From: a virus
IMG/VR virus record: IMGVR_UViG_3300045988_075249
Span: 64,001 to 128,000 of that record
Length of the DNA: 64,000 bases
Reading direction: 5' to 3' (one strand)
Position numbers and translations under genes: made by a program. Under the pieces are notes generated by a model. The model saw only the letters and a program-made list of their open reading frames with translations. It had not been told where the DNA came from and made no database searches. Positions 11,236-48,368 of this stretch are shown one piece after another (within the stretch, counting starts at the first letter, position 1; every line of letters begins with the position of its first letter).

Positions 11236-11877
11236 TTAATTACTACTTCCACCACCGCCAGAAGTAATTGTAGCAGAGTCAATAATTTTATATGCTATAA
11301 CTTGACTATTATTATTTATCTGTATAGCACCTAATGCTTTGTATGCAGACTAAGGAGTAATTTTAAGTCCTGAAGGAGAGCCGCCGTTTATAGTTAAAAT
11401 ACTATTTTTTATTACTTTATAATTATTTTTCTACACTACCCATACTGACATTGGTGCATTTTCATGTTCTATTATTACTGTGCATCCACTTATGCCTGAT
11501 AATGATTCAAATGTAATATCTACTGTTTCTATTGGAGTTTCAGTCTCAATTTGACTTATATTTTCTGCCATCTATTGAAAGCTATCGGTCGCCGCAGTTT
11601 CTATTCCCTTGTCAGTGACTGCGGTCGCTATTAGGGTTTTGCCCTCACTGACATCTGTAAAAAGTTCATCTATGGCCTCCTAAACATTGGTAGCGGCCAT
11701 GCTCGAGGTGCTATTGTTATACTCTATCAACGATGCAGTTAGACTTTCATTTTCTTCTTCATCAAATTCGATAGTGTAAGGTCCAACTCCCAAAGATTCT
11801 CCCATTTCTGCAATACCACCGCCCGGCACAGTAATGGCATCTTTGTTCTTAACCTATCCAGTTAAAATACATTCCAT
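11236..11877 (-). CDS. Hypothetical virion or fibre-associated protein. ~6 TAGs.
   Basis: RBS aaaggag plus ATG 11877. 642 nt = 214 codons to TAA 11236-11238. Confidence 0.5.
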
Positions 11878-11995
11878 GAAAATTTCTCCTTTCATTTTTA
11901 AAAAAGTACACTTTACTGAACTTGGTCAAACATATATAATCAATCTATACTCTTTTTCAAGTATATTTGAAAAGAGTAAGATACTCACTTTTGGG

Positions 11996-12030
11996 AAAAG
12001 GGTTTCTTACCCTTTTCCCAATTTTTTGTT
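11996..12030 (+). terminator. Strong hairpin gggaaaagggtttcttacccttttccc followed by aattttttg, in the divergent intergenic region.
   Basis: 11-bp perfect stem plus T-run seen in sequence. No obvious upstream plus-strand gene, so its role is uncertain. Confidence 0.35.
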
Positions 12031-12194
12031 ATCTAGGAAGAAAAAGTATTTTTCCTGTTAAAAAGTGTACTTTTTCTCGGAAATTGTTTATGGCTTTCTA
12101 AAAGACTGGAGCGAAGATCGCTTCCATCCTCGACCTTCTATCTAGTAGTTTAGATTTGTTTGAAACAATAGCTAGATAGAAGGAGGTAAATAAT

Positions 12195-13961
12195 TTGCCT
12201 AAATGTATTTTAGCTGAATAGGGTGGAAAAGGTGGAGGTTCTCTTTCTCTTATAAAAATTGAAGTAACCACTCCCCCTATTAAAACGAGCTATCTTGCTG
12301 GTGACACTTTTAATCCCGCGGGAATGGTAGTCACCGCATCTTACGGCATGGACGGCGTTATTGTAACAACAGCAGAAGTAACTGGGTATCAAGTTACTCC
12401 AAACCCTTTAACTGATGGGGTTACTAAAGTAACAATTACTTACTCTGAATTAGGAGAAACTTGTTAGACCACTCAAGACATTACTGTTATTCATAAACTT
12501 CTTAGTATTTAGGTTACTACTAACCCAACTAAGACAACTTATGAATATGGAGACACTCTCCAAACAACAGGAATGGTAGTTACAGCAAGTTATTCTGATA
12601 GTACATCATCCGCGGTTACCGGGTATAGTTGCTCTCCAACGTCATTAACTGCGGTTGGCACCTAGAAAATTACTGTTTCTTACACAGAAAATGGAGTAAC
12701 TCAGTCTGCTTCTTTCAGTGTTACTGTTGAAAGAAAATCGGTGCCGAAACCAACATGGAAGAATAATCTTACCTATACTGGTAGTAGCCAATCAGTAAGT
12801 GGTGCTTCCTATTGGAATAACTTTAATACCACTTATATGACGATTGGCGGGACAACTTCCGCGACTAACGCTGGAACCTATACTGCTACTTTCACACTAA
12901 ATAGTAATTATAGATGGGCTGATGGAACTACATCAAATCTTGATGTAAACTGGACTATCAATAAAGCTGCTGGGACTTTAACAGTAAGTCCAACTTCTGT
13001 AGCTCTTGATGGAGATAACTATAGTGCAGGCGTAAAAGTTACTATTACCCGTCCTGGAGATGGAGCTATTAGTTATAGCCCAACTAGCGTTTCTGGCTTA
13101 ACTTTATCTTTAAGTGGGAACGTTCTTACAATTAAAGGCGACGGTAGTACAGCTATTTCTTCTACAACTATTACTATCAAGGTTGCAGCAGGAACTAACT
13201 ATACGGCTCCAAGTAATAAAACTGTTACAGTAACAGCTAGCTATTGGGAGTGGGGATCTGAAACTGCTGTTGGTGATGCTAAATGGTGGGCTGGATTAAA
13301 AACATGGGCCGCTAAGGCATCATCTGGAGAGCGACAAAATTGCGTAGGTAAGACTAAAAGAGTAAGTTTATCATCTTCTGTTTTAGGTGGTAATCAAGTA
13401 TTAATGAGATGCGTTGGCGCAGATTAGGATGGAACAGGAACTTTAGCTTTTAATGCTGTCTCCGCTCTTCCTAATTCTACAGATTTTGGTAGCAATGCAG
13501 TATGGATTGGATCAACTGCTAGAGATCTATGTCAAGATTTCTATAACCGCTGTAGCGCGAAAGATTCTATTAAGACAGTAAAGAAGGGTACTTGTCCTAG
13601 TACAAATAGCTCTAGAAATGGTTCTGTAACCTATAATGATGAAACAGTATTCTTATTATCCGAAAGAGAATACGGATTAGATTCTTACTCTCCTATCTCC
13701 ACTTCAAACAGTACTACCTCTAAAGCAGAGTGTACTCAAGGTTATAATGCTGCGTATAGTTACTACATAAGCAACTCTAGAAGGGTTATGTACTTAGGAG
13801 ATGCAAACGGTAATCCAACTAGCTCATATGCGTATCAATGGGAGAGGTCCCGTGACTACTACACCTCGGGCTACGTTTGCTTTGTCAACGCCGATGGGTC
13901 TGCGAGCTTCAACCGCTACGACCTCAGCGGCGGGCTCGCGCCGGCTTTCGTTATCGGATAA
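12195..13961 (+). CDS. DGR target protein: tail fibre/receptor-binding protein with N-terminal Ig-like repeats and a C-terminal variable lectin-like domain. ~5 TAGs.
   Basis: RBS aaggaggtaaata plus TTG 12195. 1767 nt = 589 codons to TAA 13959-13961. Track ORF 12741..13427 is an internal piece. C-terminus ..QWERSRDYYTSGYVCFVNADGSASFNRYDLSGGLAPAFVIG carries the VR. Confidence 0.75.
13846..13944 (+). repeat. DGR variable repeat (VR) at the 3' end of the target gene. GC-rich 3' end (gggctcgcgccgg, IMH-like). A GTTATC-G-GATAAC palindrome lies just downstream (13951-13963).
   Basis: 99 nt aligned to TR 14569-14667. Every one of ~22 mismatches sits at an A in TR. Confidence 0.85.
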
Positions 13962-14042
13962 CACAATAAAATAACAATTCGGGACAGTTAAGATTAAATT
14001 GTCCAACTAAAATTTTATATATTCAAGTGAGGGAGATTTTAA

Positions 14043-14537
14043 ATGTCTGTAAAAGTAAAAGATAGACACATATCAAAGCAAGATTGTCTTTATAAAGCAC
14101 GCGACTTAATGGGATATATTTTAGTCTTAACTCGTCCTAGAGAATATGATAAGGATGGAAAACAAATTTGTAAGCCTGGACTGCTTGGAGAGGGTCAACC
14201 TCTTCAAGCGTTCGGGTACGATATAATTAAGTGCGGAAAGGGCTTACATGCTTGCTGTTATGAGGCATGTAAGATAAACTTGAAAGACAAAGAAACCCTT
14301 GCAAAGAGAAATGACTATCATAATAAAGCACTAGAATATTGTGATAGTATATTTCGACAAATCGACCTATGTATTTATTAGTATGCTCAGAACAGCAAAA
14401 AGAAAAGACGCTCTTTTGAACATCTAGCTAGATTGACAAAGAGAGTAAAAGAGTCAATCCAAGATAGAAAAAATAGAGATAAACTTATAACAGAGCATAG
14501 ATATTCAGCTCCTAAGAGATATAGGAGAGGTCGATAA
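14043..14537 (+). CDS. avd: Accessory variability determinant (Avd)-like small basic protein. One TAG.
   Basis: Position between target gene and TR. Small basic ORF. Track ORF 14043..14381 continues past TAG to TAA 14535-14537. Confidence 0.5.
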
Positions 14538-14568
14538 TATTTTTCTACGGTTAAGTTCTGTATCTTTC

Positions 14569-14667
14569 GGTCCCGTAACTACAACAACTCGAACAACGTT
14601 TGCAATGTCAACAACGATGGATCTGCGAACAACAACAACTACAACAACAGCAACGGGCTCGCGCCGG
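14569..14667 (+). repeat. DGR template repeat (TR), A-rich, encoding a run of Asn-like AAC codons.
   Basis: Identical to VR except at adenines. Lies between avd and the RT gene, as in canonical DGRs. Confidence 0.85.
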
Positions 14668-14978
14668 ATTAGATGGAGCTATCATGTTGCGAGTTAAGCT
14701 GCGGAGCAGCGCAAACGAGCAACGCCTAAATAGTACCCCGGAGTATATTATTATCCATCTAATTAAGGTTTACTCTGGATTGCACTCACTTTATGTGGGG
14801 AAGAGATTGAGAGACCATTAAAGAGCTTTGCTCTACAACTATCGAATAATATAATATAGGTAGATCTACCTTTTCATCTAAGGAGAACTTAACCATTTCA
14901 CTGAAAAAGTGGATAAAGTAAGACTGTAGACGTGGAGCTCGAGTAGCTACCACTATAGCTACATGATAAGGAGAAAGT

Positions 14979-16196
14979 ATGTCTGAAATAAAACAAGATA
15001 CTGCTTTCGAGCGTTTTTGTAGTTTTGACGCTATGTATGAGGCGTCTTATAAGGTATGTCGAAACGTTCGATGGAAAGATAGTACAATTAATTTTGAAGA
15101 GAATAGGATAGAAACAATTTTAAAAACAGAAGCTGACCTGCGAGCGTGTGAATACGAACAGCTTGTGTTTAGTTGTTTTTCGATAATCGAACGAGGCAAA
15201 CCAAGAGATATAAGAGCGTGTCATATCAACGACAGACTGGTACAAAATGCGTTATGTGAACAAGTTTTGCTACCAGAATTAACTCCTAGATTTATCTATG
15301 ATAATTGTGCAACCCTAAAAGGAAAGGGAATAGACTTCGCTCTGGAAAGAGTTAAGAAACATCTCCAATAGGCTCATAAAGAGTATGGGTTAGGAAAAGA
15401 TTTTTATGGATTAAGAATTGATATACAGAAATATTTTGATTCTATTGACCATGAATCTTTAAAGAAAGCAGCTAAACGGCTAATAAAAGATAAACTTGTT
15501 TATTAGTTATGTTGTTACTTGATAGATACATTTTCTTTTAAGCTAACAAAAGACACTTCGCCTATACCCGGTAAAATATATTACACAAGTAAGCGACACA
15601 AGTATGAAAGAGTTAATGTTACTCATTTCTAGCCTGGTCGTAAGTATTATGAATATGAAAGAAAGAGCCTGGGATTAGGAAGTCAAACGTCACAATTATT
15701 CGCATTGCTAGCATTGAACGAAATTGACCACTTCATAAAAGAAGAGTTACATATTAAGTATTATGGTCGTTATATGGATGATTTATACTTGCTCCATAAT
15801 GACAGTAAATACTTGGCCGAATGTGAGAAACAAATAGAAATTCGCTTAAATAAACAAGGATTAAAGATGAATAAGAAGAAAACTACTATCACTAGAATTT
15901 CTCCTATTCACGCAGATGGCGAACGCCACGCTCCTTTTAAATATTTAAAGTGGAATTTTCATCTCACAGAAACTAATCATATAATACAACTTCCTTTCAA
16001 GAAAAAAGTAGCTCATCAGCGCAGAAAACTAAAGAAAATGTAGGCTTTATGGTTAGATAATAAAATTTCAACTGAAGAAGTTTAGAAATCTTATTAGGGC
16101 TGGAGGGCGCATATTTCTAAAGGAACTTGCTTTTATATAATTCAGGACATGGACAATTATTTTCGTTCATTATTCAAAGGAGTTGAAATAAAGTAA
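14979..16196 (+). CDS. DGR reverse transcriptase. ~6 TAGs.
   Basis: RT motifs across in-frame TAGs: YGLRIDIQKYFDSIDH, GLGSQTSQLFALLALNEIDHF (DGR-type SQ variant), YGRYMDDLYLL (YxDD). Track ORFs 14979..15371 and 15705..16043 are in the same frame. 1218 nt = 406 codons to TAA 16194-16196. Confidence 0.85.
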
Positions 16197-16858
16197 TGTA
16201 TATTCTATTAAATAGAGAGAATATAGTAGTTGATATTCTTTCAGAAGCACGTTACATTAAACTGCAATCCTCAAATGGTATTGTCGTTGCCTGCGAGGAA
16301 GAAGAGGGAACTGGGGTTATCGGCTCAGATAGTGATACTCATTACACTCTAGTCAAAGCCGATGTATTAAATCAACCTAATGCTGTTACAGTATTAGAGT
16401 TGGAAACAATTCCATCAAACGTCATTCCTAACTATTCAAAGTATAATCAAGAAGATGGTACTTTCATCGCTGATTTAGATTAGGCAAAATATGATAAACA
16501 AGAGGAAAACAAGAAACTATTCGCAGAGTATCTTGCTACCCACCCGTTAACTTGGGTCGATGGAAAAGAATATGGAATTACGTAGGAGGACCAATCTGAG
16601 ATTAGCTTAAATCTCAATCAATTCTAGGTGGCTGTAGCTGCTGAAGTAGAAAATCCTACGCTTGAGTGGCACGCTCGACACGAAGAGTGTGTACCATGGA
16701 CTTTAGAGCAATTATCCGCTCTAAGTTTAGCTATTTCTAATGCGGTATATCCAAAATACCACTTAATGCAAGAATATAAAACCTAGATATTTGGAGCTAA
16801 TTCAATAGATGAATTAAAAGCTATTGAATTGAGTTATGAAGACACAGACAGCGAATAA
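16196..16858 (+). CDS. DUF4376-like protein (phage tail-fibre-associated family). ~4 TAGs.
   Basis: Track ORF 16196..16483 continues through TAGs to TAA 16856-16858 (663 nt = 221 codons). Motif ..LEWHARHEECVPWTLEQLSALSLAISNAVYPKY. Confidence 0.5.
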
Positions 16859-17294
16859 AAATATAATTCTATTCGTAGTAGGAGGAACTCTATATTACAG
16901 TATAGAGTTCCTCTATAAAACTTTTATTAGCCTTGGAGTTTGTCATTGGTCTATGTTTTTGCTAGGTGGCTTATGCTTTCTATTAATTGGACTAATGAAT
17001 GAGAATATTCTTTGGGAAGAATCTATCTTAACTCAAGGAGTAAAAGGATCTTTAATTATAACTGCTTTAGAATTAATTTTTGGATTAGTTTTAAATATAA
17101 GACTAGGTTTAGGTATTTGGGATTATTCTAACATTCCACTTAACTTTATGGGGCAGATTTGCTTGCCCTTCTCTATTGCATGGTTCTTCTTGAGCCTTTT
17201 AGCAATAGTGTTAGATGATTACCTTAGATGGAAATGGTTTGGAGAAGAAAAACCGCATTATCACTTATACAGTAGACCTCCTTGCGAGGAATAA
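16836..17294 (+). CDS. Polytopic membrane protein (CmpB/DUF1113-like).
   Basis: Track ORF, 4 predicted TM helices. Confidence 0.45.
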   Translation: MKTQTANKNIILFVVGGTLYYSIEFLYKTFISLGVCHWSMFLLGGLCFLLIGLMNENILWEESILTQGVKGSLIITALELIFGLVLNIRLGLGIWDYSNIPLNFMGQICLPFSIAWFFLSLLAIVLDDYLRWKWFGEEKPHYHLYSRPPCEE

Positions 17295-17340
17295 AAAAAA
17301 TAGGGAGAACCTTAATTAAAAGGTTCTCCCTATTTTTTTT
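17295..17340. terminator. Bidirectional terminator (agggagaacctt aattaaa aggttctccct with flanking A8/T8 runs).
   Basis: Seen in sequence between convergent gene blocks. Confidence 0.6.
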
Positions 17341-18121
17341 ATTTTACATCAATAATAACAATAGCAATATCGCTTTCTGGTTTATCTTTTGTGTAGAAAG
17401 TGATTCCAGATCCTACAGTTGCATCAGCATGATCAATTTTACTATATTCCTCTAAATTAGAAGTATAAGTAATGATAGGTGGCACATTTCCCGCTTTTCC
17501 GCAAGTTAAAGCAGTATTAGAGTATGTCTATGTATACATATCTCCGTTCAATACCCATGATGCCGCGGCAAGAGTGGTTGTATAAGCTACAGATGTGCTA
17601 CCAGTAATTTGGTTATCTGTTTCTGACTTGCTATATACATCCAAATTAGTTCTGGCTTGCGCGGCTGTCGTGCCTCCAGTTCCTCCAACCTAGATTGGAA
17701 GTGTACCAAATGTAGGTGCACCCGCAGTAATCGCGTATAAAGCACCAGCACCTTGTAAACCAGCCACACCATTTTCCGCATTTCCGATTACTAAACTGCC
17801 GGCTGCAATTTCAATCATTTTTAATGCTTCTGTTCCATTTCCTACTAGCAAAGCATTAACAGTTAATGTATCATGTCCAGTTCCACCCTACGCTACAGTA
17901 GCAGTCATATTTTTAAGAAAAATGTCGTCAATATCAATTTCAGTAACATTATTCTTTAAAACTTGAGCAGCATAGGCATTGACCTGTAGACGTCCGCCCT
18001 CTATATTACTTACATCAATAAATAAATTTCCTGTGTCCTCGCAGAAATAGGCGTATCCTTCATGAAGAGGTACATCATTAAGATCCTCTTCTGCGCCTTT
18101 AAAAATCTTAAATAAAGCCAT
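17339..18121 (-). CDS. Tail fibre protein (GGTGGTTAAQARTNLDVY motif). 3 TAGs.
   Basis: RBS aaggagggcc plus ATG 18121. 783 nt = 261 codons to TAA 17339-17341. Confidence 0.6.
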
Positions 18122-30571: not shown

Positions 30572-33500
30572 TTATTCTTTTCTTCTATTCGCCCATTGAG
30601 TAGCATCATCCGCCAAACTACGAATAGCATCTTGAATTTCATCAGAAGATGTCGCATTGGGGAATTCAACTCGTTCAATATTTATATTTGGCTAAACCAC
30701 ATTATCTGTCGGCGCAATCTAGGTATTAGTTCCCAATCTAGATGCCATAATACTAGAAATAGATAATGCATTTCCATCAAGAGTTTTCTCAATAGAGGCT
30801 ATAAAACTAGGTCCAAAGGCTCTCATAGCAGAGACCGCCGCCAAGATATTTTTCGTATCCTCTTGATTTAAAACTAGCTCTTTTTCATGCAAGAAAGCTA
30901 ATTTAGCATTATCAAATTCTCCGGTATATCCTCCAGTATCGAAACCACTTATCTAACTTTCTTTTAGCCATCCATAGGCAGAATTATTAGACTGCACATG
31001 GATTGGATATGGTCTACCCTTAGCTATATTTGTTATTCTAACCTTTTTACCTGGACCACGTCTACCAGCAGGATCAGTACCATAAGAGTCATGATAATAA
31101 GTTCCGCCAATATAAGTAACTTCGTCTCCTACTTCGGGGATTCCATTACCCCCTCCGGTTCCACTGCTAGAAGACCCACTACCACTATTACCTGAGTTAC
31201 CTTTATCAGTATCAGAAGATTGACTTGAATCAGAAGAAGGTAAGTCATCTTTATCTATACTTCCTGCACTTTCTATTGTGCTACCAGCAGCTCTAGCGGC
31301 TTCTTCAAGCGCTCTTATATATTCTCTGACTGAATCGGCCATATCTAAATACTCTTGACTTAAATCTTGAATAGTGCTTATCTATTCTAACATCTAAGTA
31401 ACGGCATTTGATCCAGCCTCAGAGCACAAATCAGTAGAAGTTGAAACATCGTCGATATAATCTTTTAAATCATCGAGACTTGTTCCAGTCTAATCGGCTA
31501 CTCCAGAAACAGTAGTTTGATAATCTTCCATCGCTCCGCTAGCTTCATCCATTGCATTAGATAAAAACTCTTCAAAGTTACCAGCATTAGCGGTCATATT
31601 GGCTAAGTCTTTCGCAAATACATTATCAAATAGGTCAATAAGTTTTGTATTACTTCCTACTATATCTTGAATCTACTCGTTATCTGATAGTAACAAATCA
31701 ATAATGCTAGAGCCAGAGTTAGCTATAATATCTTGAATTTCTTGACTTGTAATTCCAGTTAGGTCACTTACCTCGTCTCCCGCAACAATAGCCATATCAA
31801 TTAAAGCTTTATTGCCGGCTTCGGTCATATCCTAAATAGCGATCTATTTTTCGTTCTCTAGGTCCTTAACCTTCTGCGTATAATAAGAATAGATTTCTTG
31901 CGCGCGGGCAGATCTTTCTTCATCAGTCAAGGTCATATCAGAATAGATTTCTTTTATCTTATCTTGACATTCTTGCCAAGTAGAAATAATCTCTCCTGTA
32001 ACATCCTCTACCTACTGCTTTGCTATATTATACCACTCATTCTCCGCATCAAGCAAATTCTATTCTGCGTCAGCTATCTGGCTCGCATCTGCGGTGTATT
32101 GATAATTCCAGTTACCTTGACTATCTCTCACTAGTCTAAGTTGATTTTTCGCATTTTGAGCATCTTCAAGTGCCATCTAAGCCTAAAGAACATTATACTT
32201 AGCTTCGAGAATTTCTAAATCGTATTCAGATAAGGTATTGTTCTCTCTACGTATATCAATTTCCTCTTGTAGCTATTTTAACTAATCTTTCATCTTAGAG
32301 TTAGTAGCCTTATCAATATCCTGTTGTAGTTTATTATACCAAGAAGATACCTCATACGCTTCATTTACTTTATCTAAATATCTATCCTCTTGCTCGATAT
32401 AATGATCAAACTTGTCTTGTAGTAGATCTAATCCTACTCCGCCAGAAACAGCCTATCCAAATTCATATACTGCTCTCTCAATAGCTTGAGTATACATCTC
32501 CTAGGCAGTTTCCATAGCGGCTTGCGCAGAACTTAACATAGCCTCTTGTGCTTCATTATATTCTTCTAGTAGAGCATCTCTATTAGCTTTTAGACCATCA
32601 TATGCAGGATCCGTTTCATCTCCGCCTAATGCGTCTAGTGCAGCTTGAGCTTCCAATAATTCTTGACGGATTCCATCGTACCATTGTTTATTTAGCTGCG
32701 CATTGGCGACCTGAGCCTTCATAGTTTCTTCGCTTACTTCCTGAAGCTACTCAAATCCTTCCTCAGTCTTATATGTAACTCCCTAAAGAGCATATAGTTC
32801 TTTGATAAGTCCTAGAACGGATTCATTATGGTCAAGCTAATCAGTAAAAGCTGCAAATCTTTCTGACGCGGCATCTAATGCATCTGGTAGCATTTCTTCA
32901 AGACCTTCTACCCAATCAAGCAAAGCTTCCGCAGTAGAAATCATTTTACCTTGCAAGTCAGATAACTTGCTTACAATCTCATCAATATTAGTCGCATCTG
33001 TGGCATTAGCTAATTCTTCCTGATAACTTTTAAGGGCTTCTTCATAGCTCTTGATGATTTCCTTATTCTCATTCATACTGTTTTCATCAATACGAGCGAC
33101 TTCCATTCCATGAGTTAGTTCATCACCAAAAGATTCTGCTATTTGTCTTGTTAGCTCATTAACCGCATCTTTAGCATCTTTTATATCTATTGCAACTTCA
33201 AGTTTATATTCAATCTAATTTAATCTATTATCTGCAATATTTCTTTCTAGCTCTTCTTGCTCATCTTTTACATCTTGAATCTTGTCAAGAGTTTCTTCAT
33301 ATTGAGCTAAAGCGTCCTAACGAGCCTAGAATAATTCATCAGCAACTTCTTTTTGTAATTGCCAACTATCATATTCTGCCTATCTAGCCTCCTATTCATC
33401 TTTAGTAAGACTGCTAAACATTAATAAGAAAGCGTTGTAATCGGTTAAGAAGTTATTATTATAATCATCAACAATAGATTGAAGAACGTCTTGATAACCT

Positions 33501-36500
33501 TCAATTTCTCCATTTTCATCAAAAGTAAGAGAATTGTTGAATAATCCTTGAAGGTCTGATCTATCTTTCTCAAGATAGGTCTCAGCCTCATCAAGCATCT
33601 TATTATAATTAGCTTGCTGTTTTTCTAACTCTTGAAGCTCTTTCTAATAAGCCTATAATTTCTTCGCTCCATATGCTCTATCTATATTATTACCAATATC
33701 ATCTAATAAATCATTCTAATTCTCAATCTCACGAGTTATTTCATGGTATCTATCTTCTATATCTTCAAGAGTTTTTTCATCTTCGGCATCATATTTTGTA
33801 CCTTCGTTATCTCCGCCAGAATCTTTATTTCCAATATTGTCTGCTGCTATTCTATTCGGATCTAATGCTCCATCAGGATCAAATGCAAATGGCTCCTAAC
33901 CATAATCAAAAATACCATTCTATCCAGATCCCGTACCCTCAGAAGATAAATATGAACCAGCTTCTTTTAGAGCATTAGTAAAATTACCAATAGCATCTCC
34001 GCCCTCGCCGGAAATTTTTAATCCTAGAGTGGGAAGCTCAAAAGGAAGATTCGCTTTGCCAGCTAGCCAATCATCTATCTATAATTTTCCCCATGATTTT
34101 ACATATGGAGTAAAACCTAAACCATATTCAAAATTAGAAATTAAATCTCCTAGTGCTGTTAGAACAGCCCCAGCCGCCTATGAAGTTGAGCTAATTGTAT
34201 TAGCACTCTCGGACATAGTAGAATTAATAACGGCTCCAGCGATACTAGCATCAGTGGACATTGCTTGCATTAAAGCATCGGCGCTTGTATCTAGTCCATT
34301 TGCTAGCGTTATTCCCTAATTAAGAACACCCTAGAGAATCCTTTTATAAGATTCGTTATTAGTCTATTCTAGTCCTACGAGCTATTGTCCAATACTTGAT
34401 ACCATTGCCTAAAATTCTGTCGCAGTAGTATCGAAATTATTATCAATGGTAAAATCTATCGCTCCAAAGCTATCAGCATAGTTTAATAAGTAATCGTAAT
34501 TATCTACTAAACTATTTACAATTCCCATCATGTCTTGGGCATCGCTCACTTGTTTTTCCCAAGTATTTAAATTAGATATATCAGCCATGGCTCTGGCATA
34601 TTCTTCCTCAGAAATTGTAGTTTGATCTACTCCATCTTTGAGTTCCCAAACTCCGTCTGTATTTTTTGTAATATTCTAATTTAATTTAGACTAAGCCGTA
34701 ATTAATGCTTTCGTGGCAGCGATTGTTCCCTCATAGTAATCATCCATATTGATGGTTCCAGATTTAAACTTTTTATTTAAATCTATCAGTCCATCCCCTA
34801 TAGACCCGGTTGCAGCGACCAAAGTAGCTTCATATAAATCAGTTTCTTCTATATTATCGTCAATTTCTTCGTTTAATCTATGAAAGCCTGCATCTATATT
34901 ACTTAATCTTTTATTAATCGTATCAAAATATTCTTGGGCAGATATTGCCCCCTCCTGATACGCTTTCGCATTATCACTAAGGGCCTATGTTCTCTCTTTA
35001 AACAATTCTACATCAGTTTCACTTGTAAACGTATAATCATTTATTGCATTTGAATCACTGGCTCGCGATACTAATTCATCCCACATATTAATATAATTCT
35101 AGAGATAATCAGTATTTACCCCATATTTTTCTTTCATAGATTCTATTGTAGCATCAAGAATTTGCTCTTCTTGTCGTTCAGAATCTAAAAATGTCTAAAG
35201 AGACTAATTTGTTAGTTTATACGCATCTCCAACTTTAACAATATACTAAGCATATCTTTCATCTGCATTAATGAGTTCTTGAACTTGATCCATGGTTAGA
35301 TAGCCTTCTTGATCCTTATATGACTATAAGGCAGATTCAAGAGCACTCTAACTATTATTTAATTCTTCCAATATAGATTTTAAGTCGTCTATTCTCTTTA
35401 CATTTATATTTATTTCATTAATTTTATAATTATCTAAAAATTCCTATAATTCTTCAACCGTATCAAAATTATCTATATTGACACCCATAAGGATTTCCCA
35501 ATCCTCATTTGATAGAGAATCAAAATCAAAATCACTAAATTTACTTTCTACTTTTTCCTTTGCTTCATCTACTCTGCTATCTATAAAAGTTAAAAACTCA
35601 TCTACGCTGACTCCAGCTAACATTAATTCATTTTTAATGGATTCTGTTATCAAACCAGAGGCTGCACTAATATCACCACTAGCCAAAGTGCTATAAAGCT
35701 AAGTAGAAATCTATTTAACTGATTGGCTATCTAAAATTGGTTTTAATATAACCTCTTCATATTCACTTTGACTGCCATAAAGATTTTTACGAATAAGAGA
35801 TAACCGCTCCTGCATTGAAGCTATCATTTCTGGATTATACTCAATAACCCCGTCAGTAACAGATTTAATATATGCAGCATAATCATCTTCTGCTTGCTAT
35901 ATAGCTTCAGAATTGTCAGTTACCCACTGTGCCGTAATCTATTCATTTTGAGTAACCCAATCTTGATACTCTACTAAGTAATCACGATAGGCATCAGAAT
36001 TTTTATCAAGGCCCTAAGTAACACTATTAAACCAAGTGTCTGCATCTACGTACTAATTTTTATAAGTATATCTATTCTATTCAAGTACAGATTGAGCATT
36101 TGGATCATTTAAATCCATGCTCTATTCTAACTCTTTAAACCAGCCCTAGTCTCCATTGTATTCATTCCAACTTCTCCACTAGGTTAAATCTGGTCCTCCT
36201 GCCAAACCCTTAGTAGATTTATCATAATTCTCTTCGATAGTTTTTGCCTAGGCTTTTTGCGCTTCTTCTGTTAACTTCTCTTGTAACTCAACCTATCTCT
36301 ACAAAGAAGATTCTGCCTATTTAAGTTTTTCTAATTCTTCTTGTTCGACCATACTTAAAGAATCCTAATTATTTAATTCTTCTATTCTATCTTTCGTTGT
36401 CTATAATTCAGAATTTAAAGATTCTAATGCAGATTTCTAATCCTCATAAGCCTAGGTAGCACTAGATATTTTTTCTCTAGCCTCTTCTTCCGTAACAATA

Positions 36501-39271
36501 ATGAGAGAAATAACATTAACAAGTAAGGTTACTCCCAAAGTGATTAACCCAATAAGTGGTAAAGCAGTTGAGATAGCCGCACCAACAGTAGTAATACCAG
36601 CAGCCGCAGTTTTAGCTGAAGCTCCAACTGTTAAATACGATATTGCAGTTAAACTATTTTGTAATGCCTGCTGTTTAAACAAGGTAGAGATTGTTGGTAA
36701 TAACATTCCAAAGTTAGTAAGAATAACTGTAAAATCTTCAACAGTAAACTCTCCCTCTTTCACAGAATTTGTAAAAGTAGAGAACATGGAATTAATACTT
36801 GTCATTCCCATTGTAACTTGCGATAAAGTGGTTCCTACTTTAACCAATGTCTCAGCCCAGTCTAAAGTAGCATATCTGTTATTCTTTAACCCCTCACTAA
36901 TTTCTTTTGTTTTCTACTGTAATAATTCTAATCCCTATCTAAAAGCCTCAGCACTAATTTCATTATTCTTAAAAGCTGCTACAAGACCACTTAGATCATT
37001 TTTAAATTTAACAGAACCATCACCTAAAGAAGTAATAACTCTATTTAATGCAGCAACGTCTGATTCTGCCCCTTTTAATGCTTCCTAAAACTACTAAGAG
37101 GTAGTAAGATATTCTATTATCTCCTAATTTGTTGCATCTTGAGCACCTTCAAAAAGATTTAGGCTTCTTACTAAATTAATAGTTTCTTGAGAGATTTCAT
37201 TGGTTCCAGAACCAACTAATTTCTATACTTGCTAAAACTCAGAAAGACTTACGCTCGCCACTTTTAATTTGTCAATTAAACTCTAAAGGGCTTGCTAATT
37301 TGTCTTTGAACTATAGAGAATTTCTGTTTCTATGTCCTCATAAAAAGAAAATTTATTTTCATCTTCTAACACAAGCGCCGATAGTAGATTATCCTTCCAT
37401 TTTTTATTGGGAACTAAACGCTCAGACAAACTATTTGTATAAGCTGTAATAAGTTCATCTGATTTGCTAACCTACTACCCAATTAAATTAACCTATGTCT
37501 ATAAAACCTTTACTCTATCTAAATCTTGTTGTAAAATACCAGCCTAGCGCTCAGATAGTTGTGTGGCCGCAGCGGACGCTTCTCCTTCAAGCTAAACAAT
37601 CTAAGCTTGAGTATTTACCATCTATCCCTAAATAGTATTATCAAGTGCGGATTTCGCGATAATATCAGCCATCTATGCGGCTTCAGTTCTCAAAGTTTGC
37701 GCTCTATCCTTTTCTCTCTATCCGATAATACCAAGATTAGAAGCAATATCTCTCATTCCTTGCGCAATCTTATCACCAAAAGCCTTATTCATCAGTAAAG
37801 CAGTTGTTGCTAAAACGCCAGACATTCCGCCTAAACCATCAATAATATCAGCAGTTGTACTTAAAATAGGACTAAGAACATCATCTACCCCAATATAAAA
37901 ATCAGGATTTATTAAACTATCATAAATATCTTCCGCGGATGCTCTTACTCTATCTCTTGCCGCCTCCCAAGATTCAGCATAAATATCTGCTTGTTCTTGT
38001 AGAGATCCTTCTGCTCCATAAGAACTCTCCAAATTTTCCTAGAAGAAATCCCAGTTATCCATAAGAGCAATAAGACGAGTATATTGACGTACTCCAGCCA
38101 CAGTCTGTGCTAATGCAATCTATTGATCATTAGATAGAGTTTCCCATTTCTCTCCCATTTCATCTAATAAAGTATCCATAGTCTTGATTTCTCCATTAAC
38201 GTCAAAGATGTTAATTCCAACTTTATCAAGAGCCTAAGAATATTTATTTAGAGTAGTTCCATCATCAAGTGTTTCTCCAAGATTTAAGCCCTGAATACGT
38301 GCAAATAATGTTCTAAATGCAGTACCTACAGTATTCGTAGATTCACGAGTTGTAGCAGTAACAGTAGCAAGCGCAGATGCGGCATACTCATAACTCAAAC
38401 CTACCGTCTCTGCAACTGCGGCAAACTGCTAGATACCTTCTGAAATTTCATCAGAGCTTGATGCAGTATCTGCACCTAAGCGCACCATGACGTCTGCATA
38501 ATACTCAAGACTTTTACTTCCATCATAGAAGTTATTCCATACCGCAGTTAACTAGTCAGATGCAGTCTAAGCACTAACACCGGCGGCGTTTGCCATTTTT
38601 ATAGTAGTTTCAGTTCTATCTAAAACTTCCTATTCAGTAAGACCCTGTTGATAGTAAATCAGAGCTGCGTCAGTATAATCTACTGTAGTTGTGCTCAATG
38701 CTTTAGCCGCTTCATTAGCCTACTTAGCAAAAACAGCCATATCCTCGGCAGAATTTTCAGTAACTATACGAATGTTTGTCAGAGATTCATTTAAATCTTT
38801 TGCATAACCATAAGCTGTCTCTAAAGAGCCAATAAAACCCTATAAAGTGCTTGCTGTAATCTACCAACGAACCGTATTTTTCATTGTAATCCACAAATCA
38901 GACATTAACTTATTAGTTCTGATTAACGGAGTTTCCGCCGCCATAATAGCCTGAGAAAGATTTAAGAATGTTTCTTGCCCCTAAATTCCCAGTTTGCTTA
39001 GTTGATTATAATAATCTGTTAAAGTCTTTCCGCTTTTTACTAAACTATCATTAAAAGCAGTCAAATCTAACTTACCTGAATTTCCATTAGTAGCCATCTA
39101 AAGATTACGGCTCAATTCAAGGGCCGCCAAAGATGCCTACTGAAGTTCACTAGAAATAGATGGCTAATTGCCTAATTTCTATAAACTATTTATAACTTCA
39201 TTAACAGAGGTTTTTAGCTGACTCGCGTCAGCGGTAAACCCAATCTAATAGTTTAATCTTTTATTAGCCAC
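30572..39271 (-). CDS. Tape measure protein, ~2899 aa, with well over 100 in-frame TAG codons.
   Basis: Seven track ORF pieces (37718..38032, 36452..36847, 35444..35686, 33392..33598, 32837..33106, 32501..32722, 30953..31342) all share one frame (top position = 1 mod 3). 8700 nt = 2900 codons from GTG 39271 (RBS aaaggagg) to TAA 30572-30574. TM segment cluster, long coiled coils and the C-terminal ..GFDTGGYTGE..AKLAFLHEKELVLN motif are typical of tape measure proteins. Confidence 0.8.
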
Positions 39272-41469: not shown

Positions 41470-42864
41470 TTAAATTCCGTCATCCTCGGTGACAGAGACT
41501 AACTTATTGCGGGTGCTAGTCTTAGCTTTTGCTGCGGCAGATGTAGCAAAGCTAAGTTTGTTATTAATGGTATAAGTCTTTTCAAAATCACCATTAATCT
41601 TATTAATCTTTGCGGTAATAGGAGTTGCCTGATCTTCGCTAGTAAGAATTACAAGCAATCCTTGAGCTAACTCTTCGCCGCTAACGGTTTGAGTCTTTGT
41701 ATTACCTTCAATTCTTGGGTCTGTAGAGAAGTATCTCTCATAAGCTGGGTTTGTAGTTACCACATTATATTGGGTACTATCACTCTCTACTGGGATTTGC
41801 AGGCTGATCTGAGCAGCTTCTGCTATAGTATCGCCATAAGCCTCAGTGTCATAAGCCTTTCCTGTTACACTACCAGTAACATCAAGCTCTGCGGCTGTAG
41901 CACTATTAGATACGAAACTTACAGTCACATCAGCAGCTTCACTCTCATAAGTACCTACATTCTCAGAGCATGGCTCACGAGTTTCCTCGGTTTCACCGCT
42001 TTCATCAGTGATTACTTGAATTGCAGCCAATACCTTATGGGTTTGGTCGAACTTGGTGTAATCAGGGAAAGCGTCCATTGTAAAGGTAAAGGTAGAAGGA
42101 TCTCCGTTAGCTGCCATGCTGAATGTGAAGTTACTCTGAACTTTACAGTTAGGAATAATAAATTCAGCAGGCATATCTACGCCATCGCTCTCACGACGGA
42201 ATAGAGTTGAAGCCTCAAGATAATAGTTACCACCAAACTTATCAGCAGTAATTTCAATCATCTGTGCTCCACCGGTACGCTTTACATAGTAGTCAACTAA
42301 AACAATGGTTCCCGCAGGAAGTACGCCAGCATGAGAATAACAAGTTAAAGTTGTTTTGCCATCTTCTGTGTAACTTACAGAAACAGGAATACAAGGCTCG
42401 GCATTAACTTGACCATCATCGCCTAACACCATCACAAAGATGTCGGCAGAACGGTGATACATTTCATTATCATGGTCAGTAAATCCATTCCAGCAAGCCT
42501 TGTCTGGAACAATAATAGTATTGGCAGTCTCAACTTCAATCTGAGAAGTCTGGTGAACATAGATAGGAGCTTCTTTTGTTGCATCAAGTAGGCCAGCACC
42601 AGAAAGAATAGAGAAGCTTTCTGGAGAAAGTAGAGCATCTTCCATTGTAAAGGTTAGAGTACGCTCACCTTCCCAAGCAATCAATCTAGAATATCCATGT
42701 CCGCCCTGCGCATATACTGTTGTTGCAGCACCCTCAAGAGTAGAGGTTCTTAAAGTGTCGAAATATAAAACTGGTTCATTTTTGTAGAACTTACGATTAC
42801 CAAGGGTTTGATAACTCTTCGCACGAAGCACTACATCGCAAATCTCACGAATACCAAAACGCAT
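41470..42864 (-). CDS. Major tail protein (tube or sheath). No TAG codons.
   Basis: 464-aa intact track ORF. RBS ttaaggaggaatt. Its own terminator follows. Position between head-tail genes and the chaperone/tape-measure genes. Confidence 0.55.
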   Translation of the reverse strand: MRFGIREICDVVLRAKSYQTLGNRKFYKNEPVLYFDTLRTSTLEGAATTVYAQGGHGYSRLIAWEGERTLTFTMEDALLSPESFSILSGAGLLDATKEAPIYVHQTSQIEVETANTIIVPDKACWNGFTDHDNEMYHRSADIFVMVLGDDGQVNAEPCIPVSVSYTEDGKTTLTCYSHAGVLPAGTIVLVDYYVKRTGGAQMIEITADKFGGNYYLEASTLFRRESDGVDMPAEFIIPNCKVQSNFTFSMAANGDPSTFTFTMDAFPDYTKFDQTHKVLAAIQVITDESGETEETREPCSENVGTYESEAADVTVSFVSNSATAAELDVTGSVTGKAYDTEAYGDTIAEAAQISLQIPVESDSTQYNVVTTNPAYERYFSTDPRIEGNTKTQTVSGEELAQGLLVILTSEDQATPITAKINKINGDFEKTYTINNKLSFATSAAAKAKTSTRNKLVSVTEDDGI

Positions 42865-46008: not shown

Positions 46009-46566
46009 TTACTCGGATATAGTTACTCTACGCTTTGGAGTATCATCACTTGCAACCGATGCTCTTCTAACAGGCTTAACCTCATTTTTAGAATTTTTTC
46101 CTTCGTCCGCGGTTAATTCCAACGCTTTAGTAACGTTAAAACCTAATTGTTTTTCTATCGCATCTCGCTTTGAAATATCATTCAAAGGAAGAGAAACCGC
46201 GTGAGCCTTAATCAAATCTTTTGTCCCATCAGGGGCAAAATCAAGAGCATCCTTGAATTCATCCAAAGAGCATGACTGCATCCACGAATCAATATCTTTC
46301 TCTTTTAACCAATATTCTGGTTCAACTTTCCCATTAATAAGATATTCAATAATTTCTTTATCATCAATTAATAGATAATTATAAATCAGCTTGCGGCCTC
46401 CGGGTGTTTGAACCAACTTTTCAAGCTCAGATACACTAATCTCTTTATGCTCACCTGGATAGAACATACGACGTACACCAAGCTCAGGCAGTTTATATAC
46501 CGCGCGGCCCGCACTTTTATTATAAACAATACACTTATCTTTCATATTATATCTCCTTTTTCTCAA
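46009..46566 (-). CDS. Hypothetical head or connector protein. No TAG.
   Basis: Track ORF, 185 aa. Confidence 0.5.
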   Translation of the reverse strand: MRKRRYNMKDKCIVYNKSAGRAVYKLPELGVRRMFYPGEHKEISVSELEKLVQTPGGRKLIYNYLLIDDKEIIEYLINGKVEPEYWLKEKDIDSWMQSCSLDEFKDALDFAPDGTKDLIKAHAVSLPLNDISKRDAIEKQLGFNVTKALELTADEGKNSKNEVKPVRRASVASDDTPKRRVTISE

Positions 46567-46606
46567 TAAATAAAGGGGATAGGGATATTTCCCTATCCCC
46601 TTTTAA

Positions 46607-47659
46607 TTAACCATTATTTGGATTTGGGTTAGTATTATCAAGCTCACCTTGAAGTTCAGTATCAACGTAAGAGAAAATGTTATTTGCCATCATTACGCCA
46701 ACTCCGACCTTGCGGTAAACCTGAATATCACGAGACCAGTCATCGTTATCATCGCGCTCGCGCACGTGAGTAGTACCCTCAAAAGCAACTTTAACAGGAC
46801 GGGTATCTGCTCCACCGGGGATAACCCAAGCATAACCAGGGTCAATCATCTTTCTAGAGTTAGTCTCATCCTCAAGAGTTTGAGGTAGAATTACCACTCT
46901 AGTTCCCTTGTAGTTAGCAAGGTATCCAGTTCCCCAATACTGATCTCTCATGTTATCAGAAATCCAAGCCTCATTATCTGGAATCATCTTTACTGCAAAC
47001 TCACGAGTACAGTAAATAGTAGGCTGACCATAAGCGCTAGCAGTATTTACAAGATAATCCATAGTGGCTTCATCAAAACCAGCAACGGCACAACGGTTTG
47101 CTGCGGGAAGCTGATTAATAGAACCCATAAGAGCTTGAGCAATCTCTCTATAAATAAGCTCTTGCATACCCTCAGTTACAATCTGAGTAAGTTCTGCGAA
47201 GTTTACTCTTCCGTCGAGGAACTCCTCGAATCCGATACGAGCAGCTCCGCCGATAGCACTTGTACCAACTTCGAAGCTCTCGGAACCGAGCTTAAAGGTC
47301 TCGTATACGCCAGCAAGTCCAACGCGAGTGATGAATTGCTTAGCACGGGTAAGTCCAGTTCTACGAGTAAATACAGGTTTATCTCCCTGTCCGAAAGTTC
47401 TAATCTCGGCAAAATTGCCATAAGAATTGAGTAAACGATTAGGAACAACTTCATCCATAGTTTGCTCAATTAAAGAGAATAGAGTATGTTTATTTTCTCT
47501 ATAAAGTTCATCTGTGCCAACAAGCTCATTTAACTCATTGCGCAAAGTGGTGTTCAAAGCGTCGTAGCTAAAGGATTCTCCTTGATAGCTATAGGTACCA
47601 GAAGGATTTGCATTGGCGACAGTCTTCATTAAACTAAGTAAATTAGCTTTATCTAACAT
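46607..47659 (-). CDS. Major capsid protein (HK97-fold-like). No TAG codons.
   Basis: 350-aa intact track ORF directly downstream of the scaffold gene. Composition and position typical of a major capsid protein. Confidence 0.7.
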   Translation of the reverse strand: MLDKANLLSLMKTVANANPSGTYSYQGESFSYDALNTTLRNELNELVGTDELYRENKHTLFSLIEQTMDEVVPNRLLNSYGNFAEIRTFGQGDKPVFTRRTGLTRAKQFITRVGLAGVYETFKLGSESFEVGTSAIGGAARIGFEEFLDGRVNFAELTQIVTEGMQELIYREIAQALMGSINQLPAANRCAVAGFDEATMDYLVNTASAYGQPTIYCTREFAVKMIPDNEAWISDNMRDQYWGTGYLANYKGTRVVILPQTLEDETNSRKMIDPGYAWVIPGGADTRPVKVAFEGTTHVRERDDNDDWSRDIQVYRKVGVGVMMANNIFSYVDTELQGELDNTNPNPNNG

Positions 47660-47678
47660 TCTTCTTCACTCCTTCCAA

Positions 47679-48368
47679 TTAACCTACACGCTGTACTTTT
47701 ACACCGGGTTGAAGATCTGGCATGGTGTATACTTTTACTACTGTAAAGATAGGATCTAAATCTCCACCCTTAGCAGAAGATTCAGTATCCTCGGTTAAAT
47801 AACCATCAGTATTAATCTTTAAACGATCTCCAACAGCAAGTGAACCGGCATCAGCCTTAATAGTATTAGTCGTCCAAATATCACCAATACTAATCTTAAT
47901 TACACGTGGAACCATTTTAGTTCCTTCTGGCATCAAAGCTGGATAAGTAAATGTTTCCATATTCTTTTTATATGCTACGTTACTACCTTCACGTACAGCT
48001 TCACCAGTATAGTCATTAATGGTAGCGAGTGTAGAAACGGTCTGTCCGATTGGGCTATAAACACGAGCGTTATAGTTATCTTTAATCATAGCAAAATCGG
48101 CATCAGTCTCACGATCTCTATAAATTTTTACCTCATTGAATACCATCATCCAAGCACCAGAAGTAGCCCCTGTGCTAAAATCACATACACCCTTAGCATA
48201 GTCATACTTTACGAATTGACCATTCTCAAGAAGGGTGATTGTGCTAGCAGCAGGAAGCTGGGCATATACCTGACCATTTCTTGGAGCGGAAAGATGGTTT
48301 GGTTCTACTTGACCATATCCATATTGGACAAAAGTAGCATTACCTAATCTTTTAGAACTCTTAGCCAT
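47679..48368 (-). CDS. Capsid-associated protein (decoration or auxiliary capsid protein). No TAG.
   Basis: Track ORF lying between the scaffold and major capsid genes. Confidence 0.45.
   Translation of the reverse strand: MAKSSKRLGNATFVQYGYGQVEPNHLSAPRNGQVYAQLPAASTITLLENGQFVKYDYAKGVCDFSTGATSGAWMMVFNEVKIYRDRETDADFAMIKDNYNARVYSPIGQTVSTLATINDYTGEAVREGSNVAYKKNMETFTYPALMPEGTKMVPRVIKISIGDIWTTNTIKADAGSLAVGDRLKINTDGYLTEDTESSAKGGDLDPIFTVVKVYTMPDLQPGVKVQRVG

Follow-up and report, generated by a model that had tools for sequence, protein, structure and literature searches.

A probably functional diversity-generating retroelement in a large TAG-recoded gut phage

Is a reverse transcriptase (RT) gene that lies beside a pair of direct repeats, and that is interrupted by several in-frame TAG codons, part of a working diversity-generating retroelement (DGR)? 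The question is raised by a locus in a 64-kb stretch of viral DNA, here called the window. An earlier, sequence-only reading of this DNA had proposed a complete DGR, and the repeat pair, the target gene, an accessory gene, the template repeat (TR) and the RT have now all been identified. We consider that the locus is a functional DGR of a TAG-recoded gut phage with a genome of about 100-150 kb, with a probability of roughly 0.93. The previously given order of target, small ORF, TR and RT is correct, and the features are as follows.

11991-12021, plus strand: terminator-like hairpin upstream of the module, a 13-pair stem and then a T run
12195-13961, plus strand: DGR target gene, 588 aa, TTG start, five in-frame TAG codons, TAA stop
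13482-13955, plus strand: DUF6273 / C-type-lectin-like ligand-binding domain of the target (aa 430-587), with VR at its C-terminal end
13846-13944, plus strand: VR, encoding SRDYYTSGYVCFVNADGSASFNRYDLSGGLAP; 21 differences from TR, each at a TR adenine and none at a non-A position
13932-13955, plus strand: IMH-like 3' end of VR, the GC-rich GGGCTCGCGCCGG followed by CTTTCG, divergent from its TR counterpart
14043-14537, plus strand: accessory gene for an Avd-like basic protein with a predicted four-helix bundle, 164 aa, one in-frame TAG, pI 9.7
14569-14667, plus strand: TR, non-coding, 35 adenines; 15 AAC codons and one AAT codon in the reading frame of VR
14667-14764, plus strand: structured spacer of the DGR RNA, closing helix 14667-14677 / 14754-14764
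Within the spacer, plus strand: stem 14686-14695 / 14714-14723 and hairpin 14698-14702 / 14706-14710
14979-16196, plus strand: DGR RT gene, 405 aa, six in-frame TAG codons; Pfam RVT_1, E 1.8e-16
16196-16858, plus strand: gene in the same orientation, its start overlapping the stop of the RT gene (TAATG), four in-frame TAG codons, weak DUF4376 match
16836-17294, plus strand: small membrane protein (ABC_trans_CmpB-like; Pfam PF06541, E 4e-12), last plus-strand gene of the module
17293-17340, plus strand: strong bidirectional terminator-like hairpin closing the plus-strand module, a 20-pair stem with an A run and a T run on its flanks

The main evidence comes from the repeats themselves. A repeat search returned 13846-13947 and 14569-14670 as the sole direct-repeat family (offset 723 nt, 78% identity), which reproduces the coordinates assigned before to VR and TR as 99-nt repeats. 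Exact ungapped comparison over the 102 nt gives 22 mismatches, and the TR base is A in all 22 cases; non-A mismatches are absent, and VR keeps 14 of the 36 TR adenines. At the mismatched adenines VR carries G ten times, T seven times and C five times. Under random placement, a hypergeometric test gives P = 3.2e-13 for 22 mismatches that all coincide with the 36 A positions. One of them, at 13945 (C in VR, A in TR), lies outside the shared GC-rich end. Because this difference is fixed in all 13 relatives compared, it is regarded as a boundary (IMH versus IMH*) difference and not as a product of mutagenesis, which leaves 21 differences within the 99-nt repeat that are ascribed to mutagenesis. 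Thus, the claim that every one of about 22 differences falls at a TR adenine holds for 21 internal positions and one boundary position, and the A-specific mismatch test on the pairwise alignment, which had been suggested as a check, found mismatches restricted to TR adenines. No second VR was found on either strand of the window.

Both repeats were said to end in a common GC-rich sequence, and GGGCTCGCGCCGG (13 nt) is indeed identical at 13932-13944 in VR and at 14655-14667 in TR. Directly past this stretch, CTTTCG on the VR side stands against ATTAGATG on the TR side, a divergence that is fixed and conserved; GCGCCGG-CTTTCG is kept in relatives down to 59% RT identity. The GC stretch and the fixed divergence after it are consistent with a putative IMH/IMH* arrangement. 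The palindrome described downstream of VR, GTTATCGGATAAC, is present at 13950-13962, where it overlaps the stop codon of the target gene, but it is not a conserved feature. The closest relatives carry synonymous changes that break it up (GTCATTGGATAAT), and RNAalifold found no conserved structure in eight diverse VR-downstream regions. The palindrome is therefore most likely incidental, and its interpretation as a BPP-1-like cruciform was rejected. A small GC hairpin at 13928-13943, picked up in the terminator scan, was also set aside as incidental, since it needs VR-specific A-to-G changes.

VR is located at the 3' end of the target ORF, inside the C-type-lectin-like domain. The ORF starts with TTG at 12195 downstream of an AAGGAGG site, and the length of 589 codons given before is right when the stop codon is counted. 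Its Pfam matches are Big_3 (E 8.5e-12), corresponding to Ig-like repeats, and a C-terminal DUF6273 (E 8.8e-10). A KCILAEQ motif at the N-terminus is common to homologs of different architecture. The structure models used for the target and the accessory protein are those of homologs, at 92% and 65% identity, and not of the window proteins themselves. In the target model the DUF6273 domain has a CLec-like fold, and the fold matches include the DGR target TvpA, so that the proposal of a lectin-like, VR-bearing C-terminus is supported by both the domain match and the modelled homolog. The label of tail fibre was not borne out, as the protein consists of Big_3 Ig-like repeats and DUF6273 and the sole PHROG match is a family of unknown function. 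The target most likely serves in receptor binding or adhesion at the virion surface, and instead of a tail fibre it could equally be a different virion-surface adhesin, for example a Hoc-like decoration protein. Up to 20 codons in VR are mutable (15 AAC, one AAT, two TAC, one GAT and one AGC), giving a potential repertoire of about 10^20 peptides with no stop codon reachable.

Encoded beside TR is an RT with an [ILV]GxxxSQ motif 4 and a YxDD motif. The GxxxSQ motif is LGSQTSQ (15675-15695, aa 233-239) and YMDD lies at 15771-15782 (aa 265-268); both of the DGR-type motifs reported earlier, the SQ variant of motif 4 and YMDD, were thereby located. Among solved structures, Bordetella bRT (8ub7_A, E 3.5e-14) comes closest to this enzyme, whereas group II intron RTs reach 1e-7. 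The top NCBIfam score was obtained with a group II intron RT/maturase model, at 75 bits against a cut-off of 300 bits, and this match lies mainly over the C-terminal thumb/X-like region. All NCBIfam models for group II, retron and DRT enzymes score far below their cut-offs. The nearest annotated relatives are the RTs of nd12 (35% identity), Shimadzu (34%) and Faecalibacterium phages (28%).

The small ORF between the target and TR had been called avd-like. This stands for its position, its basic charge and its predicted fold, which is a four-helix bundle that bears an inserted beta-hairpin and ends in a basic tail, but not for its sequence: no similarity to Avd was detectable in Pfam, NCBIfam, PHROGs or PDB sequences, in a search that included an 11-sequence profile and permissive thresholds. 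None of 87 homologs of the accessory protein carries a Pfam annotation. The gene is present at every locus of the family where it was extracted, and its ORF is shortened to 130 aa in the relative L026.

A structured RNA lies 3' of TR. RNAalifold gives 26 pairs for the spacer, 13 of them with double-sided changes; 91.8% of alignment cells are paired, compared with 31-47% when the alignment is slid, and the covariation score was attained by none of 500 shuffles. The single-sequence MFE fold yields the same helices (z -3.65). No Rfam family corresponds to the spacer between TR and RT, and an Rfam scan of 11900-17400 returned sub-threshold matches on the terminator hairpins only and no intron RNA family. 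On the other side of the RT, a DUF4376-like gene follows as had been described, but the match is weak and below the Pfam cut-off (E 2.6e-4, 21.8 bits against 25 bits). This gene is found directly 3' of the RT in 45 loci and is missing from three distant cassettes (L046-L048). The ABC_trans_CmpB-like gene is syntenic in 38 loci and is probably outside the DGR. All five genes of the module end in TAA.

Activity of the element was judged by comparison of assembled relatives. In a nucleotide search, GenBank phages gave only a single 95-nt match to the cassette, and thus there is no close annotated relative among them; the closest contigs are 80-95% identical to the window. Of 48 loci retrieved from related viral contigs, 40 contain a VR-then-TR pair. 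In these 40 loci 81-100% of the mismatches are at TR adenines, with 100% in 33. Within a subgroup of 13 genomes TR is variable at three columns, and VR is variable at 36 of 38 TR-A columns versus three of 65 non-A columns. Four metagenome relatives have a TR identical or near-identical to that of the window, with VRs that differ at 12-17 adenine sites. TR is 100% identical in four relatives whose genomes are merely 86-95% identical, and each VR is unique. TR-specific non-A changes are repeated in the cognate VR (C>T in L042, G>A in L005 and A>T in L050), and the C of the window versus the G of its relatives in GGGCT[C/G]GCG is likewise mirrored between TR and the cognate VR. In the 40 loci and in four metagenome contigs, every VR differs at adenine positions against a nearly invariant TR. 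As far as sequence comparison can tell, the near-invariance of TR, the adenine-linked diversity of VR and the copied TR variants indicate ongoing TR-to-VR retrohoming. At least eight contigs have a break within VR or TR or next to one of them, which is what heterogeneity of VR within a sample would produce. Variation among relatives is substantial in the 300 nt upstream of VR as well (an ungapped count gives 128 variable columns, probably including indels), so that the contrast with the flank is not counted as evidence.

The in-frame TAG counts of the sequence-only reading, about six in the RT and about five in the target, were reproduced, and one more TAG occurs in the accessory gene. The element is thus written in a TAG-recoded code. 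Stop-free sequence, in stretches of at least 100 codons, increases from 30.9 to 79.8 kb once TAG is read through, and one ORF of 2,899 aa carries 102 TAGs. Orthologous RTs contain 0-23 TAGs at differing positions, yet they align from end to end. At RT columns aligned with TAG, Gln is the commonest residue, at 30% against a background of 3.3% (ninefold), and K, I, E and R also occur. TAG recoding is real, and TAG most likely encodes Gln. ARAGORN found no tRNA, including suppressor tRNA(CUA), in the 64-kb window; some recoded phages are without suppressor tRNAs (PMC10607447). The relatives of the terminase TerL are Enterococcus, Geobacillus and phAss-1 phages. Since these are phages of Bacillota and not Crassvirales, a crAss-like identity was excluded. 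The phage is distantly related to phAss-1 and to the Enterococcus and Geobacillus phages, with a genome of about 100-150 kb and a probable host among Clostridia or other Bacillota.

By analogy with Bordetella phage BPP-1, the element would work in the following way. The non-coding TR and the structured spacer downstream of it would be transcribed, and the TR RNA would be reverse-transcribed by the RT acting with the accessory protein, a basic four-helix bundle, with misincorporation specifically opposite adenines. The cDNA would then take the place of VR in the 3'-terminal part of the target gene, and the shared GC-rich end, GGGCTCGCGCCGG, would set the boundary and the direction of the transfer. 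As an outcome, up to 20 codons may be rewritten on the binding face of the DUF6273 C-type-lectin-like domain, which is borne on Ig-like repeats. Since the RT, accessory and target genes carry in-frame TAGs read as an amino acid, most likely Gln, this machinery can be produced only under TAG suppression. The biochemical mechanism, the priming site, the location of the target on the virion and the timing of expression are inferred here.

It is conceivable, though unlikely, that the DGR is a relic, active in an ancestor, with the differences between VR and TR as fossils and no current activity. Some cassettes of crAss-like phages are silent or fragmentary (PMC12386605), and the accessory ORF of L026 is truncated to 130 aa. 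However, the pair in the window has no non-A mismatch, which implies no ordinary drift since the last homing event, and the window and its relatives have intact copies of RT, accessory gene and TR. The full conservation of TR across genomes that differ by 5-14%, each with a unique VR, the transfer of TR point variants to VR in several lineages and the contigs broken at the repeats also speak against a relic.

Two other explanations are far less probable still. The repeats might have arisen by chance or by recombinational duplication unrelated to the RT, and have diverged by normal mutation, while the RT belongs to a group II intron, a retron or a defence system. The top-scoring NCBIfam model for the RT is that of group II, although at 75 of the 300 bits needed. 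Yet random placement would give the mismatch pattern with P = 3e-13, the pattern recurs in 40 related loci, bRT is the best solved relative, GxxxSQ replaces the SP motif, and neither an intron RNA in 11900-17400 nor an above-threshold group II, retron or DRT match was obtained. Equally improbable is that the in-frame TAGs are genuine stops, with target, accessory and RT as pseudogenes or split genes of a non-working element in a standard-code phage. The lack of a suppressor tRNA in the window fits such a situation, and the gene calls of public homologs do end at TAG (P0088-P0140, 150-430 aa against 588 aa). Nevertheless, read-through restores full-length conserved proteins window-wide, as in the ORF of 2,899 aa, the TAG-containing RT orthologs align over their whole length with their ninefold enrichment of Gln, and the related phAss-1 lineage is documented as TAG-suppressing (PMC10607447). 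A functional DGR therefore remains the preferred explanation.

A more tentative idea, which we regard as rather doubtful, is that the family forms a distinct DGR subtype of TAG-recoded large Bacillota gut phages, marked by an accessory family of novel sequence, a spacer fold outside Rfam and an insert in the RT, in which the TAGs in RT, accessory and target genes gate retrohoming to the phase of TAG suppression. If such gating is true, diversification of receptor binding would be coupled to late gene expression. Apart from this idea, the cassette family shows the action of a DGR in nature very cleanly, with a template that stays the same and a target tip that is rewritten across dozens of related genomes, and it could be a benchmark for DGR finders. 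Such programs miss cassettes of this kind when RT and target genes interrupted by TAG are called with the standard code, as seen in database homologs cut at TAG. The family widens the range of DGRs to an uncultured and little-described lineage of large TAG-recoded gut phages, and the divergent but confidently modelled Avd-like protein and the covariation-supported spacer RNA could inform variation of the RT-Avd-RNA complex. Knowledge of the DGR mechanism and of recoding is unchanged by this cassette.

Compared with the DGR of BPP-1 (mtd, bavd, TR and brt), the target here is a Big_3 and DUF6273 protein instead of Mtd. The accessory protein is without detectable sequence similarity to bAvd and has the additional beta-hairpin insert and basic C-terminal tail, and the RT, when aligned with bRT, is longer by about 50 residues in the stretch from the motif 3 to the motif 4 region and continues at its C-terminus into an extension similar to a group II thumb/X domain. 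BPP-1 has a long IMH of 21 nt, whereas the homology of TR and VR ends 3 nt past the GC stretch here. The hairpin/cruciform downstream of VR in BPP-1, which is not universal, has no conserved counterpart, and in contrast to BPP-1 the genes contain in-frame TAG. Among TAG-suppressing phages, phAss-1 and the proposed Phassvirus group from the human gut have genomes of about 133-136 kb and predicted Clostridia hosts, and many of their structural ORFs are subject to TAG suppression (PMC10607447). The TerL of phAss-1 is 44% identical to that of the present phage, a distant relationship, and phAss-1 carries suppressor tRNAs, unlike the 64-kb window. The paper on phAss-1 makes no mention of a DGR or reverse transcriptase (PMC10607447).

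The same VR-bearing family, DUF6273, occurs in the Faecalibacterium prophages Lelie, Roos, Pioen and CP11 and in the 'tentaclins' of nd4 and nd12, and it has been described as CLec-like in the DGRs of Clostridia gut phages (PMC11792537, PMC10743442). Clostridia gut phages with DUF6273 targets and the Roseburia phage Shimadzu share about 28-35% RT identity with the present phage, and their inferred hosts are Bacillota, too. These phages and prophages are 33-62 kb in size, compared with about 100-150 kb for the TAG-recoded genome here; stop-codon recoding is unreported for their DGRs in the two papers (PMC11792537, PMC10743442). In target1 of nd4 and nd12 the DUF6273 domain is N-terminal, whereas it is C-terminal here. 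The combination of a DGR with TAG recoding, which had been called unusual, has a precedent in seven zeta crAss-like phages with amber codons inside their DGR RT genes (PMC12386605). The zeta (and epsilon) crAss-like DGRs likewise combine a recoded genome, in-frame TAG in the RT and a GxxxSQ motif, and their targets likewise end in a C-type-lectin domain, sometimes preceded by Ig-like domains (PMC12386605). The zeta crAss-like phages are a different lineage, and avd is found in only two of them (PMC12386605), against an accessory gene wherever it was extracted here. Thus, DGRs with amber-interrupted RT genes and DGRs with DUF6273 targets are already published.

The window is clearly TAG-recoded. 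Stop-free sequence, counted in stretches of at least 100 codons, amounts to 30.9 kb with TAG as a stop and to 79.8 kb with TAG read through; one 2,899-aa ORF (30572-39271, minus strand) then contains 102 in-frame TAGs. The plus-strand genes of the diversity-generating retroelement (DGR) module were called with TAG as a sense codon, and the order target, accessory gene, template repeat (TR), reverse transcriptase (RT), proposed in the sequence-only reading, is borne out by these calls. This module sits between two minus-strand gene blocks and has long terminator-like hairpins at both ends.

11991-12021, terminator-like hairpin at one end of the module
12195-13961, plus strand, target gene bearing the variable repeat (VR), 588 aa, 5 TAG
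14043-14537, plus strand, accessory gene, 164 aa, 1 TAG
14569-14667, plus strand, TR, between the accessory gene and the RT
14667-14677 / 14754-14764, closing helix of the TR-RT spacer, beginning at the last TR base
14686-14695 / 14714-14723, two-part stem inside the closing helix
14698-14702 / 14706-14710, hairpin inside the closing helix
14979-16196, plus strand, RT, 405 aa, 6 TAG
16196-16858, plus strand, weakly DUF4376-like gene
16836-17294, plus strand, small membrane protein
17293-17340, terminator-like hairpin at the other end, 20 pairs with A and T runs to either side

The last hairpin could terminate transcription bidirectionally. The start of the weakly DUF4376-like gene overlaps the RT stop codon (TAATG, 16194-16198). 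In 45 related loci this gene comes directly after the RT, and it is absent from three distant cassettes (L046-L048); it may serve the DGR or the target, perhaps as a fibre chaperone. When 30 distinct orthologous RTs are aligned, 30% of the residues opposite a TAG are Gln, against a background of 3.3%, and the alignment holds end to end with 0 (L048) to 23 (L039) TAGs per RT. Despite the heavy recoding, ARAGORN found no tRNA or suppressor tRNA gene within the 64-kb window, and the TAG-decoding agent must be supplied by the host or encoded elsewhere in the genome. TAG use is very uneven from gene to gene; in-frame TAG is missing from NrdD (606-2795), a virion structural protein (41470-42864), structural genes at 46-48 kb (46009-48368) and the small membrane protein.

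Within 11500-17000, a repeat search found a sole long direct-repeat family, 13846-13947 and 14569-14670, 78% identical and spaced by 723 nt. The claim that VR (13846-13944) and TR differ only at adenines was upheld by exact ungapped comparison: all 22 mismatches have A in the TR, the downstream copy, and G, T or C in the VR, the other 14 of 36 TR adenines are the same in the VR, and every non-A position agrees (chance of all 22 falling on adenines under random placement, 3.2e-13). Both repeats end in an identical GGGCTCGCGCCGG, and the likeness stops 3 nt beyond. One of the 22 mismatches, at 13945 (C after the VR, A after the TR), is a fixed difference in 13 of 13 relatives compared, and so reflects the repeat boundary, not mutagenesis. 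No second VR was found in the window when both strands were scanned with TR adenines as wildcards. Translated in the VR frame, the TR reads SRNYNNSNNVCNVNNDGSANNNNYNNSNGLAP, with 15 AAC codons and one AAT; no adenine substitution yields a stop codon, and the reachable peptides number about 10^20.

The target combines Ig-like repeats (Big_3) with a DUF6273 domain at its C-terminus (aa 430-587, Pfam) that holds the VR. Most of its database homologs are cut short at TAG by standard-code gene calling. In their alignment, a hypervariable patch coincides exactly with the VR-encoded residues within a conserved frame, W-ERSR...VC-V...G-A...LAPAFVIG. The proposed lectin-like C-terminus is thus supported. 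The label "tail fibre" has no such support: a single PHROG family matches, and its function is unknown. An N-terminal motif, x-K-C-I-L-A-(D/E/N)-Q (12195-12225), is common to homologs of different architecture, including the DUF6273 proteins P0107, P0125 and P0128, whose middle regions differ. Its conservation supports the TTG start at 12195, and its sequence may represent a docking peptide, perhaps for the virion. The front half of DUF6273 (13320-13839) gives no blastn alignment between the window and metagenome loci L050-L052, and identity is 85-93% on either side. This segment, outside the VR, outpaces its flanks in divergence through module exchange or strong selection.

Relatives supply comparative evidence for activity. 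Protein-guided IMG/VR searches provided 47 related loci, some sharing contigs, mostly from contigs of 50-148 kb. A VR-then-TR pair is present in 40 of 48 viral-contig loci (L001-L048), and TR adenines account for 81-100% of its mismatches; most of the others lack a VR because their contig or stored chunk stops at that point. In a 13-genome subgroup, the TR has three variable columns; in the VR, variation affects 36 of the 38 columns with a TR adenine but just 3 of the 65 others. Five metagenome contigs have the TR end and spacer in common with the window, and their overall identity to it is 80-95%. The full 99-nt TR is 100% identical to the window's in three, has a single base change in one, and is divergent in its first ~15 nt in the fifth (L053). 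The VR region is absent from one of the five, and the other four each carry a distinct VR with 12-17 adenine-site differences. Where a TR has one of the rare non-A changes, the VR beside it has the change too (L042 C>T, L005 G>A, L050 A>T), and the window's pair shares a C where the nearest relatives have G, as predicted if copying runs one way, from TR to VR. In this phage family, at least eight IMG/VR contigs have an end that lies in the VR or TR or no more than about 100 nt away: L001/L008 (starting at about window 13907), L012 (VR at 19-128), L018 (VR cut at position 13), L038, L027, L011 and L040. This pattern suggests that assemblies break at the hypervariable VR or the VR/TR repeat, indirect evidence for VR heterogeneity within samples.

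The boundaries are conserved: GCGCCGG is followed by CTTTCG at the VR and by ATTAGATG at the TR. The palindrome noted after the VR, GTTATCGGATAAC, is indeed present at 13950-13962, but it is not conserved, since synonymous changes give GTCATTGGATAAT in the nearest relatives; alignment folding of eight diverse VR-downstream regions found no conserved structure. The 311-nt TR-RT spacer has one in its TR-proximal 100 nt. Double-sided changes occur at 13 of 26 pairs, 91.8% of cells are paired against 31-47% with one side slid, and 0 of 500 shuffles match the observed covariation. The single-sequence fold gives the same structure (z -3.65), and no Rfam family matches it. By analogy with the Bordetella spacer, this RNA is expected to position the RT-Avd complex.

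The accessory protein is not a member of the Avd family by sequence; every sequence method applied failed to recognise it, and none of its 87 database homologs has a Pfam domain. The model of homolog P0001 (92% identical) is confident (pLDDT 88.3, pTM 0.81), with four long helices, the first two separated by a short beta-hairpin, an Avd-like predicted fold. The accessory ORF is truncated to 130 aa with a frameshifted tail in L026 and has a 2-aa deletion in L028; both loci keep VR/TR pairs with 17 adenine-only mismatches.

The window encodes portal, virion structural and tail proteins, TerL and NrdD. TerL shares ~50% identity with its counterparts in Enterococcus, Geobacillus and Alicyclobacillus phages of 120-142 kb, and 44% with that of human-gut phage phAss-1, a TAG-suppressing phage with a predicted Clostridia host whose description does not mention a DGR (PMC10607447). 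These TerL relatives rule out a crAss-like identity. The nearest annotated RTs (28-35%) are from phage nd12, Roseburia phages and Faecalibacterium phages.

Apart from Avd sequence-family membership and the optional downstream hairpin, the cassette shows every defining feature of a DGR that is open to in silico testing. Published DGRs of Faecalibacterium prophages and of phages nd4 and nd12 already have DUF6273, described as CLec-like, as their target domain (PMC11792537, PMC10743442). The combination of a DGR with TAG recoding, thought unusual at first, has a precedent in zeta crAss-like phages, whose DGRs have amber codons within the RT gene (PMC12386605), as here in a phage that is not crAss-like. 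The only new items are the divergent Avd-like protein family, the covariation-supported spacer RNA, and the lineage, that is, large TAG-recoded phages grouping with Bacillota phages.
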